Source: Candidatus Hermodarchaeota archaeon (GTDB lineage Archaea > Asgardarchaeota > Heimdallarchaeia > Hodarchaeales > Hodarchaeaceae). Taken from it: 32,000 nucleotides of DNA. Both the position numbers and the translations under genes were made by a program. Positions 25,865 to 29,398 of the stretch are shown in pieces (position 1 is the stretch's first letter; every line of letters starts with the position of its first letter). The notes beneath the pieces are model-generated. The model was given only the letters and a program-made list of their open reading frames with translations. It had not been told where the DNA came from and ran no database searches. The stretch covers positions 120,001-152,000 of the forward strand of contig JBHLKY010000007.1 in assembly GCA_048886185.1 (NCBI GenBank), written 5' to 3'.

Positions 25865-26470
25865 TCAGAGGAAAGCCATCAACTGTTCACTAGTATGGTC
25901 ATCAATATACTTTTCAGTACGATAGACTTTTTTTGTCGTGACTGTGTAAAGAGCTCCTGTTGGTGTTACTTTTTCGTCAATTGCTTTTAAAACGCTAATT
26001 ATCTCTTCTTCACTTGGCCAGTGAGCCCATTCAAACGCATAATCAAATTCTCCGATAAGAATAGAGGACTTTAGTGTATCCAATGTATTTGTGGGTTCCA
26101 TTTCCTGAATTACTTGCTCAATAGCACGAACAGCTTTTGAAAGACTTGGCCCATGAATTCGTATGAAAGAAAAAATTGTATGATGTGCTTGTTTTCCCAT
26201 TTCTGCTGTTACTCGGTTAGTGTGGCGACTTTCAGATGTTATAGAATACTTTGTTGGTAAACCAGTTAGAGTATCATCAATTTTCTCTAACAACGTGAAT
26301 ATTTGCTGATGTTTCGGATCCTCAATCCAGTGAAATACAAAATCATATCTTCCAAATGTAACTTCCCCTCTAGAAAGAGGAAGCTCAGATTTAATAGTAT
26401 CAACAAGGTTCGATAACCGATCAAGGGCTTGTGGAATTTGTGGGCCATAAAGTCGAACATTAGACTTCAT
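25865..26470 (-). CDS. Hypothetical protein made of two tandem repeats with an Lrp/AsnC RAM-like GxYD motif and no HTH
   Basis: Repeat 1: VRLYGP...TFGRYDFVFHW...LLEKIDD.L...TKYSIT. Repeat 2: IRIHGP...LIGEFDYAFEW...VLKAIDE.V...ALYTVT. ATG at 26470 with a GAGGT SD is preferred over 26515. Confidence 0.75.
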   Translation of the reverse strand: MKSNVRLYGPQIPQALDRLSNLVDTIKSELPLSRGEVTFGRYDFVFHWIEDPKHQQIFTLLEKIDDTLTGLPTKYSITSESRHTNRVTAEMGKQAHHTIFSFIRIHGPSLSKAVRAIEQVIQEMEPTNTLDTLKSSILIGEFDYAFEWAHWPSEEEIISVLKAIDEKVTPTGALYTVTTKKVYRTEKYIDDHTSEQLMAFL

Positions 26471-26600
26471 TATAGTTAACCTCTCACTTATTATTATCAG
26501 AATTATTCTAAGCAAAGTTTTTTAATCTTTGTTCTTTGATTAGGTGAAATTCGAAATCAATTTTTTACCTAAATAACAAATACATATTTGACAAAAAACA

Positions 26601-26812: not shown

Positions 26813-28498
26813 ATGGCGGATATTAAAGCTATAGCCTCCTTCATACCTCAAAATAGGCTCTCTATTGAAGAGTTGGTCGATAGCTATCACAGTTTATCTA
26901 CCCTGAATTATAAGGTTGCCTTACGAAAGCTCAAACAAACAGTTAATCGCTTTCGTGGGAAGACTTTGCGTAGTGTTCGTTGGGTATATAATCAACGGTT
27001 AATGCTTCGAGAAAAGGTTGTTCCAGGTCCTAATGAGGATGCACTAACTGCTGGCACTCAATCGTTAATATATGCTATACGTCGTGCAGATATTTCTCCG
27101 GATGAAATTGACGCGTTATTTGTTGTTTCAGAATCTTATCCCTATGCTGTAAAATCAAGTACCGCTATTGCGGGAAAAGCTGGTTTAACTGATCTAAAGT
27201 ATGGTGTTCGTGGAGAATTTGCCTGCAAACCCTTCGGGGAGTTTCTCGATATTGCAGCTGCACTTATTGATTCTGGGAGGTGTAGGTATGTTGCTGTTAC
27301 TGCAACAGACGCTAGTCAAGGTGCTCCAGGGGATGATCTAGAATTTTCAGCATCTTTCTATTCTACTAGTATTATTCTTGGGAAAGAAAAGGGTATTGCT
27401 GAGATCAAAGGACGGACATCCATTAATTATGATTTTTCAGATTTTATAAGGAAAGAGGGAGAAGAATTTCCTGAGCATGAGGGTCAGGGTACCTCACTAG
27501 CGTTCCGAGGAATGATCCTTTCTACATTAAAGAAACATCTAGAACGCTTTCCAGAAATGGATACTAGTTGTCTTTCAAGAAAGACTTGGGTAATTCATTC
27601 TCCCAATGGTAGTTTTCCTAATGAGGCATTATTAGATATTGGGAACCATTTTGGAGTTACTTTAGCTGAAAAAGTCTTTGATGATGATGGTACTTTGCTA
27701 GGGATTGAACCTAGGGTTAATGTCTCAAATTTAGCTCCTGATATTGCTAATGGTTATTCTGCAACTGTACCAACCGCATTATGCAATGCTATGGAAAATG
27801 CGAAAAAAGGTGAAGAGATTATGGCTGTTCTTTACGGTTCAGGAGCAGGATCGGACGTAATTAGCATTAAACTTAAAGCAAATGGATCACAAGTGGCTAA
27901 TAATGGAGTTCCCACAGTACAGGAGCAGATAGACTATAAACAAAAAATCACTGTTGACGACTATTTCCGCTTTCGTGATAGTCCAGATCAAGTAGCGAGA
28001 AATATAGCTTTGCTCGAAGTAGACCCAATATCCAAAGAATATTATCAGATGGAGGGGTGTCCTGAATGTGGTGCTGTGTACTTTGGTGATAGTTGGACCA
28101 AGGGGAACTTCCCTGATTTTTCTCCTCCTGAAAAATTTGACGAGTTAGAAGGTCGATGTTTACGTGGGATTCAGAAAAGAGCTGGCGATCCTAAAAAAAT
28201 ATGTGGAGCCAAATTAAAACAGGTGAAAATTCCTAAAAGGGCAAAAATTAGAAATGTACACTATTATGCTCCTTCAAAAAAGTCCCCTGGCCATCCTGAA
28301 AACCCTTATTGGGCAATGTTTGATCAAAAGTATGTTAGGGGTTTTAATTACAATCCAAAAGTCTGTAGTTTTGCTGAAGGAGAGGAAGTAAAAGCAGTTA
28401 TTGGTCGTTGGCGTCCTGCACCGAAAGGATGGGTACCAATATTATATGTTCCTATGTATACTCATCTAAGGCGAGATTACCAACAATCATCAAATTAA
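26813..28498 (+). CDS. Archaeal-type HMG-CoA synthase-fold protein fused to a C-terminal DUF35 (Zn-ribbon + OB-fold) domain
   Basis: SESYPYAVK (Glu), EFACK (Cys), DASQGAPGDDLEF, HSPNG (His) and YGSGAGSD. The C-terminal part reads YYQMEGCPECGAVYF...RC...ICG...KIR...PY...GEEVKAVIGRW...ILY, matching the DUF35 pattern. Confidence 0.82.
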   Translation: MADIKAIASFIPQNRLSIEELVDSYHSLSTLNYKVALRKLKQTVNRFRGKTLRSVRWVYNQRLMLREKVVPGPNEDALTAGTQSLIYAIRRADISPDEIDALFVVSESYPYAVKSSTAIAGKAGLTDLKYGVRGEFACKPFGEFLDIAAALIDSGRCRYVAVTATDASQGAPGDDLEFSASFYSTSIILGKEKGIAEIKGRTSINYDFSDFIRKEGEEFPEHEGQGTSLAFRGMILSTLKKHLERFPEMDTSCLSRKTWVIHSPNGSFPNEALLDIGNHFGVTLAEKVFDDDGTLLGIEPRVNVSNLAPDIANGYSATVPTALCNAMENAKKGEEIMAVLYGSGAGSDVISIKLKANGSQVANNGVPTVQEQIDYKQKITVDDYFRFRDSPDQVARNIALLEVDPISKEYYQMEGCPECGAVYFGDSWTKGNFPDFSPPEKFDELEGRCLRGIQKRAGDPKKICGAKLKQVKIPKRAKIRNVHYYAPSKKSPGHPENPYWAMFDQKYVRGFNYNPKVCSFAEGEEVKAVIGRWRPAPKGWVPILYVPMYTHLRRDYQQSSN

Positions 28499-28540: not shown

Positions 28541-29398
28541 TTATTTTTGACATTTTGAGCAATAGAAGGTACTTCTGTTTTTCTGAGTCATCCGACTTAT
28601 ATGAGTTCCACAAACAATGCAGGGTTGTCCCTCCCGATTGTAGGCCATATGCCATGATTGAGCATCCCCAGTAGCGCCTGATGGTAGTTCATAAGGCTGA
28701 AAATTCATAGAGCTCCCCTTATCTTGCAACGCCTTCTGCAATATTTTGCTAATCGCTAGTCCTAGCTCCTCTCTTTCAGTATTTGAGAGCGTGTCTACTT
28801 TTCTTAAAGGATGAATCTTCGCGCAAAATAGAGATTCAGTTTTGTAGATATTACCAATTCCAGCTACAAGGCGTTGATTAAGTAATACCTCACCAATCGG
28901 TTTATCTTTAAAATTTATTTTACTAAGTCGAGTTAAAAACTCTTCTAATGGAAAAGGAGAGGCTAATCCATCAATTCCTAAAAATCGAATTGGATCGTAC
29001 TGCATAACTTTCTCATAAGAGGAAAATACTTTAAATTGGCCAAAATTACGGATATCATCGAAAATAGCACATGGGGGTGTTTCCATCTGTACAATTACTT
29101 TAATGTGGTTTGCGGTTGAGGGTAACTTATTAGTATCAGTATAAAGACACCACTTCCCTGACATGCCTAAGTGATTCAAGATGACTGCGTCAACCCTCTC
29201 AAAACACCAAACTAAAAATTTCCCAAAACGAACAATATCTTGAATTGTTTTCCCTTTAAATTGCTCAAAAAACGGCTGTTTATTATTATATTTAGCATAT
29301 TTTTGAGACAATGGAGTCAATTGAATCCTTTTGACTTTCTTTGAAATCAGTTGACATAATTCTCGTCTCACACTTTCTACTTCAGGACCTTCAGGCAT
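28541..29398 (-). CDS. mutM: Fpg/Nei family DNA glycosylase/AP lyase (MutM-like)
   Basis: N-terminal PEGPEV, GKFL, HLGMSG, DIRNFG, H2TH motif LLNQRLVAGIGNIY, and Zn finger CIVCG...RSTFYCSKCQ. Confidence 0.88.
   Translation of the reverse strand: MPEGPEVESVRRELCQLISKKVKRIQLTPLSQKYAKYNNKQPFFEQFKGKTIQDIVRFGKFLVWCFERVDAVILNHLGMSGKWCLYTDTNKLPSTANHIKVIVQMETPPCAIFDDIRNFGQFKVFSSYEKVMQYDPIRFLGIDGLASPFPLEEFLTRLSKINFKDKPIGEVLLNQRLVAGIGNIYKTESLFCAKIHPLRKVDTLSNTEREELGLAISKILQKALQDKGSSMNFQPYELPSGATGDAQSWHMAYNREGQPCIVCGTHISRMTQKNRSTFYCSKCQK

Follow-up and report, generated by a model that had tools for sequence, protein, structure and literature searches.

The window, a 32,000-nucleotide stretch from a Candidatus Hermodarchaeota archaeon whose genome is 96% complete (G000 hereafter), contains a gene in which a domain of the HMG-CoA synthase (HMGS) family is joined to a DUF35-like domain. 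The features at this locus are the following:

26813..28498, +, stand-alone HMGS-family/DUF35-like fusion gene, 561 aa (open reading frame, profile matches, 47 homologues, pN/pS)
26813..27982, +, archaeal-type HMGS domain, residues 1-390 (NF003274/TIGR00748 scores, Foldseek, identities)
26891..26968, +, basic insertion of ~26 aa, residues ~27-52, probably in the helix alpha2 region (alignment, 80% column conservation)
27131..27133, +, catalytic Glu107 (SES.P in 47/47 homologues)
27224..27226, +, catalytic Cys138 in EFACKPF (EFACK in 47/47 homologues)
27596..27598, +, catalytic His262 in HSPN (47/47 homologues)
27749..27751, +, catalytic Asn313 in ANGY (46/47 homologues)
27995..28477, +, probable degenerate DUF35-like zinc-ribbon/OB domain, residues ~395-555, with Cys416, 419, 449 and 464 and two insertions between them (several weak, concordant tests)
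25865..26515, -, divergent neighbour, function not assigned (near the fusion gene in 8/13 relatives)
28541..29398, -, Fpg/MutM DNA glycosylase, convergent neighbour (near the fusion gene in 12/13 relatives; synteny only)

The 561-aa open reading frame begins at a Met common to its homologues, 47 of which were collected (499-569 aa, 71-87% identity, mostly Hodarchaeales by NCBI names), and its product is labelled 'hypothetical' at NCBI. All three regions of the gene are under purifying selection (pN 0.06-0.37, pS 0.6-0.9), and a scan for promoters and terminators gave results at chance level. The gene stands alone in 14 of the 14 loci read, mostly near fpg and with no mevalonate gene linked to it. 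The divergent neighbour encodes a conserved protein of ~205 aa, which to the eye seems to be built of two similar halves that both contain a G.YDF motif; it has no Pfam or Atlas match, and nothing was found that ties its function to the fusion gene.

The best profile matches of residues 60-389 are the archaeal HMG-CoA synthase models, yet the curated cut-offs of these are missed (NF003274, 195 bits against 244; TIGR00748, 175 against 353), and the PF01154 (HMG_CoA_synt) profile does not match the protein. The closest solved relative by sequence is the HMGCS of M. thermolithotrophicus (6esq_I, E 1.1e-41), and Foldseek also put 6et9_I/6esq_I on top for the model of the N-terminal domain (E 2.6e-16), which indicates a thiolase fold with HMGS as the nearest structure. 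The full-length model (mean pLDDT 63.5) is of low quality at the active-site lid and near the insertion. In the alignment, ACKPF, HSPNGSF and ANGYS of the fusion fall opposite ACKAG, HQPNGKF and GNTYS of the M. thermolithotrophicus enzyme, so the open reading frame and the altered motifs described in the earlier note are confirmed, and the catalytic Glu, Cys and His that it had reported as retained are indeed intact (E107, C138, H262), as is N313. This E-C-H-N tetrad, kept in 46-47 of the 47 homologues, is essential for HMG-CoA formation in the methanogen complex and is lost in the repurposed PhlA/MucA (PMC12960953). An inactive scaffold of the PhlA/MucA type was ruled out as the class of the fusion, since the tetrad is intact. 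The identity to canonical archaeal HMGS is 30-34%, compared with ~60% among the canonical enzymes themselves, and 42 of the 101 columns with a conservation of 90% or more among 150 canonical HMGS are changed, including (canonical to fusion) ACKAG to ACKPF, RF to QG, Y208 to F231 and G159 to Y183. Together with the long stem branch leading to the fusion clade in the trees, these changes count against reading the protein as an HMG-CoA synthase.

The basic N-terminal insertion, given earlier as ~25 aa, is recovered in the alignment as ~26 aa after residue 26. Residues 26-66 hold 11 K/R and no D/E in the G000 protein (7-11 K/R in the relatives), and the columns of the insertion are 80% conserved. 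By alignment it would map to the region of helix alpha2, where other HMGS enzymes bind the phosphate of CoA/phosphopantetheine (PMC11522927).

The C-terminal ~165 aa carry four Cys (416, 419, 449 and 464) in DUF35 order in 47 of 47 homologues, and a GRWRP...YVPM surface there is strongly conserved. None of 31 C-terminal domains matched either of the DUF35 Pfam models (PF12172 and PF01796) at E<=10, and the C-terminal alignment found no match when searched against the HMMs of Pfam and PDB. Against the DUF35 proteins of Heimdallarchaeia operons, HHalign gave P values of 0.0009-0.0015 with 96-97 colinear columns and all four Cys matched, the score being 29.0 against a maximum of 26.8 across 60 column shuffles. 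The top seven Foldseek rows for the C-domain model (pLDDT 68) are all DUF35 chains (E 0.09-0.28), and in a second look with VIA-align such chains occupied ranks 1-10 (Z 2.8-3.6, rmsd ~4 over 55-76 residues); the VIA-align run on 48,161 chains put a phage fibre at rank 1 and contained nothing with Z>=5. The ESM Atlas features returned only DUF35-like clusters (0.85, 189 shared features), and a profile search of 1.84 billion proteins yielded, beyond the family, only fragments, repeat noise and P0075. Because each of these concordant tests is weak and there is no Pfam match, the DUF35 identity is likely rather than firm; in our judgement the domain is very probably of DUF35 ancestry and degenerate, although its HMM scores leave it outside the family. 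Of the C-terminal Zn-ribbon/OB-fold DUF35 domain proposed in the earlier note, the four Cys and the insertions between them stand, but no HMM match supports the family name.

The ~560-aa fusion form occurs in 20 of the 22 GTDB genomes of the genus, which bears Hodarchaeales names at NCBI, the two genomes lacking it being 71% and 80% complete, and the remaining 61 genomes of the class have only the canonical HMGS of ~350 aa or fragments. A search of G000 for a second or canonical HMGS found none, the fusion being its sole HMGS-family gene, and in nearly all genomes of the genus it is the only catalytically complete one. A second copy with Cys, His and Asn is present only in G052, where it is truncated, and a second partial match lies on contig C255 of G064. 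Weak NF003274 matches in other genomes of the genus were rejected as HMGS, as they lack the HMGS motifs and have a KAS III-like appearance. The extra HMGS copies of the Hodarchaeales genomes G048 and G063 lie within HMGS-thiolase-DUF35 operons and have lost the tetrad (E>G, C>G, N>D), as in PhlA/MucA. These operons (L036:2097-5041 and L037:2094-5026) are PhlABC/MucABC-like trios, composed of the tetrad-less HMGS, a divergent thiolase with its Cys and a DUF35 protein of ~200 aa. HMG-CoA reductase was found in 20 of the 22 genomes of the genus, and in G000 the genes for mevalonate kinase (over the cut-off), AcnX, a UbiD-like protein and an FMN-dependent IDI-like protein form one cluster. The sole copy, the tetrad, the purifying selection and the downstream pathway therefore indicate that the fusion is the HMGS replacement of this lineage, not a spare paralogue, and the 'neofunctionalised paralogue' suggested earlier is wrong as worded. 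The other case considered there, an ordinary sole HMGS of the lineage, agrees with the distribution, but the sequence is far from ordinary. By database label and sub-cut-off scores the genomes of the genus look as if they had no HMG-CoA synthase, a gap that the fusion fills.

In other Heimdallarchaeia the operon order is kept as HMGS, then thiolase, then DUF35. The operon thiolases of families f2, f4, f5 and f6 group together as a single clade (SH-aLRT 98) and are without the nucleophilic Cys in 20 of 20 sequences; in f7, the only one of these families with an intact thiolase, it has been kept in 9 of 9. In f4-f6 the His of the GH motif is missing as well. The HMGS adjoining the Cys-less thiolases is canonical (loci L017, L019-L035, L039, L041, L042 and L119). 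The clade of operon thiolases was not found in the genomes of the genus (best identity 44%, compared with 54% within f2), and no thiolase adjoins the fusion in G000 or in the loci of 13 relatives, as had been noticed for this locus before. Neither a clustered nor a cognate active thiolase, by which a thiolase/HMGS/DUF35 channelling complex is recognised, was found for the fusion.

G000 encodes eight thiolase-family proteins. Three archaeal-type thiolases are present, and next to each of them lies a separate DUF35 gene. Only the one on contig C9 (G000:C9:72558-73700) has Cys, HDxF and GHP, and this type occurs in 16 genomes of the genus. At that locus (L003:173-2538) genes for a zinc dehydrogenase and an enoyl-CoA hydratase-like protein precede the intact archaeal-type thiolase, and a DUF35-FabG-like SDR fusion comes after it, an arrangement that resembles the archaeal fatty acid synthase module (bioRxiv 2024.07.05.601840). 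Complex predictions for the fusion with the C9 thiolase scored 0.09 and 0.03, the mark being 0.32, and were counted neither for nor against such a pairing. Acetoacetate-CoA ligase is present in 18 and bacterial-type thiolases in all 22 of the 22 genomes of the genus. On contig C4 of G000 one string of genes (L215:5357-9330) encodes an acetoacetate-CoA ligase together with a thiolase that lacks its Cys and a DUF35 protein of 221 aa, and genes for thiolase and acetoacetate-CoA ligase also adjoin in G051, G058, G059 and G065.

The genus also has a probable route from leucine to HMG-CoA. MCC-beta is present in 20 of its 22 genomes, compared with 0 of the 61 other genomes of the class (E<=1e-150), and outside the genus in only one other among 251 sampled Asgard genomes; a close homologue of the G000 protein is named methylcrotonyl-CoA carboxylase (MCC) by NCBI. 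In G000 the gene lies in a leucine-breakdown cluster on contig C13 (L212:5519-11163) with genes for biotin carboxylase, BCCP, a LiuC-like hydratase and an alpha/beta hydrolase. HMG-CoA lyase was looked for in the genus and not found. Since MCC and the LiuC-like hydratase are present and no lyase was found, HMG-CoA can probably come from leucine, and thus the sole-copy argument for an essential HMGS is weaker than usual. For the same reason, MCC being present and the lyase not found, the Cys-less thiolase/DUF35 pair on C4 is a candidate Ltp2/Sal-like retro-aldolase, which may cleave HMG-CoA to give acetoacetate and acetyl-CoA.

A homologue of the whole fusion exists on Aenigmatarchaeota-like contigs (30% identity, HHalign probability of 99% for the C-domain, 16 shared derived positions), which encode an IleRS 72% identical to that of Aenigmatarchaeota and have no thiolase beside the fusion. 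The gene lies there (L056-L060) between DUF498 and a co-oriented gene of 229 aa without a Pfam match. The presence of the homologue there suggests that the gene passed from lineage to lineage as one unit. P0077 was searched for in the GTDB genomes and not found. Three trees gave three different placements of the fusion gene: grouping with the HMGS of Heimdallarchaeia is not rejected without P0075/P0077 (p-AU 0.63) and mildly rejected with them (p-AU 0.029), and grouping with a largely bacterial clade is not rejected (p-AU 0.34). Moreover, the families of Lokiarchaeia have a separate HMGS form of ~540 aa (51/54, 5/5 and 1/1), often adjoining HMGR, MVK or AcnX genes and with an intact tetrad; the loci that were read contain no thiolase, and MCC has no match. 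At L061-L080, L218, L223 and L224 this divergent form, with its degenerate C-terminal domain, replaces the canonical one, and G195 has a second copy, whose neighbours are carotenoid-like genes and an IDI-like gene. A common origin of this form and the fusion is unsupported, as the C-termini are not detectably alike (HHalign P 0.19) and the branches are separate. In addition, the C-domain model had a match in the Atlas shape search with a mostly Bathyarchaeota cluster of 537-aa HMGS (TM 0.58), and in Helarchaeota and one Bathyarchaeota protein DUF35 is fused at the N-terminus. Given these separate long or fused forms in Lokiarchaeia, Helarchaeota and Bathyarchaeia, fusion of HMGS and DUF35 genes has occurred several times. 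High-scoring HMGS matches in open frames of 507-524 codons in G110, G127, G134 (family f20) and G088 are possibly further fusions or long upstream frames.

We give a probability of about one half to the reading that the fusion is a stand-alone HMG-CoA synthase, in which the fused domain and the insertion replace the lost complex. The findings directly behind it are the tetrad, the sole copy, the downstream pathway, the stand-alone gene and the absence of the operon thiolase. We infer the reaction and the roles of the added parts as follows. Cys138 would be acetylated by acetyl-CoA and Glu107 would deprotonate the acetyl group, His262 and Asn313 would hold acetoacetyl-CoA, and the HMG-CoA produced would enter the mevalonate pathway. 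The enzyme would probably be independent of a dedicated thiolase partner and could draw acetoacetyl-CoA from the cell pool supplied by acetoacetate-CoA ligase, bacterial-type thiolases and beta-oxidation. In the methanogen enzyme the CoA site is common to HMGS and thiolase, and the HMGS is reported to show no activity when produced without its partners (PMC12960953). An enzyme of this kind that stands alone therefore requires repairs, and the insertion and the fused domain may be these repairs. The basic insertion would rebuild the part of the CoA site formerly supplied by the thiolase, and the DUF35-derived domain would pack on the synthase as a structural part, at the site of the free DUF35 in the archaeal complex, a position filled in polyketide HMGS enzymes by their C-terminal subdomain (PMC11522927). 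In the simplest reading of the order of events, channelling would have already lapsed in the relatives, after which the thiolase would have been lost from the genus and DUF35 retained within the fusion in a structural role. The Lokiarchaeia form, divergent but with an intact tetrad and often beside mevalonate genes, offers a parallel in favour of the stand-alone reading. Against this reading, besides the changed columns and the leucine route, stand the inactivity reported for the lone methanogen HMGS, the missing linkage to mevalonate genes and the poor full-length model, and the Cys-less operon thiolases may still serve in binding.

The model of the earlier note was that the fusion carries out standard HMG-CoA synthesis and that its DUF35 docks a thiolase encoded elsewhere, for which the C9 protein is the best candidate, so that the channelling complex is rebuilt. 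Characterised DUF35 proteins do bind thiolase-fold partners (PMC12960953, PMC12329534), and the strong conservation of the four Cys and the C-terminal surface, as well as the spread of the C9-type thiolase in the genus, would favour it. However, each archaeal-type thiolase of G000 already has a DUF35 gene beside it, that of C9 being coupled to a DUF35-FabG-like fusion, and the Aenigmatarchaeota-like homologue has no thiolase beside it either; four genomes with the fusion (G050, G054, G056 and G059) show no C9-type match, a weak point as they are 70-87% complete. With the operon thiolase not found in the genus and Cys-less in the sister family, the recruitment of a distant thiolase has no positive support, and we consider it unlikely. 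The main rival is a changed reaction, which deserves consideration because the genus probably has the leucine route to HMG-CoA. Having gained MCC and methylglutaconyl-CoA hydratase, it would obtain HMG-CoA for lipids from leucine, and its only HMGS-fold enzyme, freed from the thiolase complex, would condense acetyl-CoA (or propionyl-CoA) with another 3-oxoacyl-CoA. The restriction of MCC-beta to this genus within the class and its clustering with the other leucine genes, the undetected lyase, the many pocket substitutions and a burst of divergence followed by stasis in the tree all point this way, and a flux from leucine to mevalonate has been proposed for another archaeon (PMC12979851). Nevertheless, the match with MCC is a single evolutionary event, the sole HMGS form of Lokiarchaeia has diverged just as far without MCC, G105 has MCC with a canonical HMGS, and partner genes of another pathway are absent near the fusion in 14 loci. 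The odd residues are not specific to the genus either, because P140, E223 and G226 are shared with the Aenigmatarchaeota-like homologue. Such a rerouting is unlikely in our view; if true, archaea proposed to be closest to eukaryotes would do without the standard entry step of the mevalonate pathway.

The enzyme could also run in reverse as the last step in the breakdown of leucine (HMG-CoA + CoA giving acetoacetyl-CoA + acetyl-CoA), standing in for the missing lyase. MCC without a detected lyase would agree with this, as would a string in another genome (L225:8001-15248), in which HMGS, thiolase and DUF35 genes are directly followed by those for carboxyltransferase, hydratase, biotin carboxylase and BCCP, the thiolase being intact. 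But HMG-CoA formation is an exergonic step (PMC11522927), so the reversal should need a coupled thiolase, which is absent at the fusion gene, and the gene is unlinked to the MCC cluster. Furthermore, the MCC-beta of G000 is nearer to Thermoplasmata/Ktedonobacteria sequences (72-73%) than to the trio-linked one (66%), and a better candidate for the lyase is the Cys-less thiolase/DUF35 pair encoded next to acetoacetate-CoA ligase. We regard the reverse reaction as highly improbable. Co-transfer of the fusion with an MCC-linked trio is likewise unsupported by the MCC-beta identities.

The Asgard group of the Hodarchaeales has been proposed as close relatives of eukaryotes, and a thiolase-independent HMG-CoA synthase is the state in bacteria and eukaryotes. 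If the stand-alone synthase is active alone, the archaeal channelling complex would be reducible to a thiolase-independent enzyme, with the Cys-less operon thiolases as a plausible intermediate. As it is confined to one genus, the fusion is a parallel to the eukaryotic and bacterial state, not its ancestor.

Among known systems, the thiolase/HMG-CoA synthase/DUF35 complex of M. thermolithotrophicus (6ESQ/6ET9; Vogeli et al. 2018, as described in PMC11522927 and PMC12960953) is like the fusion in the match of the N-terminal domain, the E-C-H-N tetrad and the DUF35-like C-domain; the fusion differs in being one polypeptide without a thiolase gene, in the 26-aa basic insertion, in the 42 of 101 changed columns and in a degenerate DUF35 with insertions in the zinc ribbon. 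HMGS-DUF35 fusions are already known from P. fluorescens (with inactive HMGS) and S. albus. In the PfACAT/HMGS-DUF35 system of P. fluorescens (PMC12960953) the tetrad of the fused HMGS is lost and an active thiolase is co-encoded, whereas here the tetrad has been kept and a thiolase is missing. The HMGCS-DUF35 of S. albus DSM 41398, likened here by its description in PMC11522927 and not by sequence, also has a DUF35 homologue fused C-terminally, and is proposed there to form a thiolase complex. A literature search, which covered few subscription papers, turned up nothing on the Hodarchaeales enzyme or on any fusion that is catalytically complete and lacks a thiolase. PhlABC and MucABC (5M3K, 9VBO) go back to the same ancestral trio, PhlA being the second-best PDB sequence match, but in PhlA/MucA the tetrad is lost and catalysis resides in the thiolase unit, the reverse of the situation here. 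The ~540-aa HMGS of Lokiarchaeia (P0066 type) shares with the fusion the intact tetrad, a C-terminal extension with a faint resemblance to DUF35 (HHalign P 0.039) and loci without thiolase, but it is on a separate branch, 21% identical, often in mevalonate clusters and without the N-terminal insertion. Set against these systems, the fusion appears to be a strongly altered enzyme that, with the HMGS-thiolase-DUF35 unit gone in the genus, is left as the only candidate for the HMG-CoA synthase step and thus for the entry into isoprenoid lipids.
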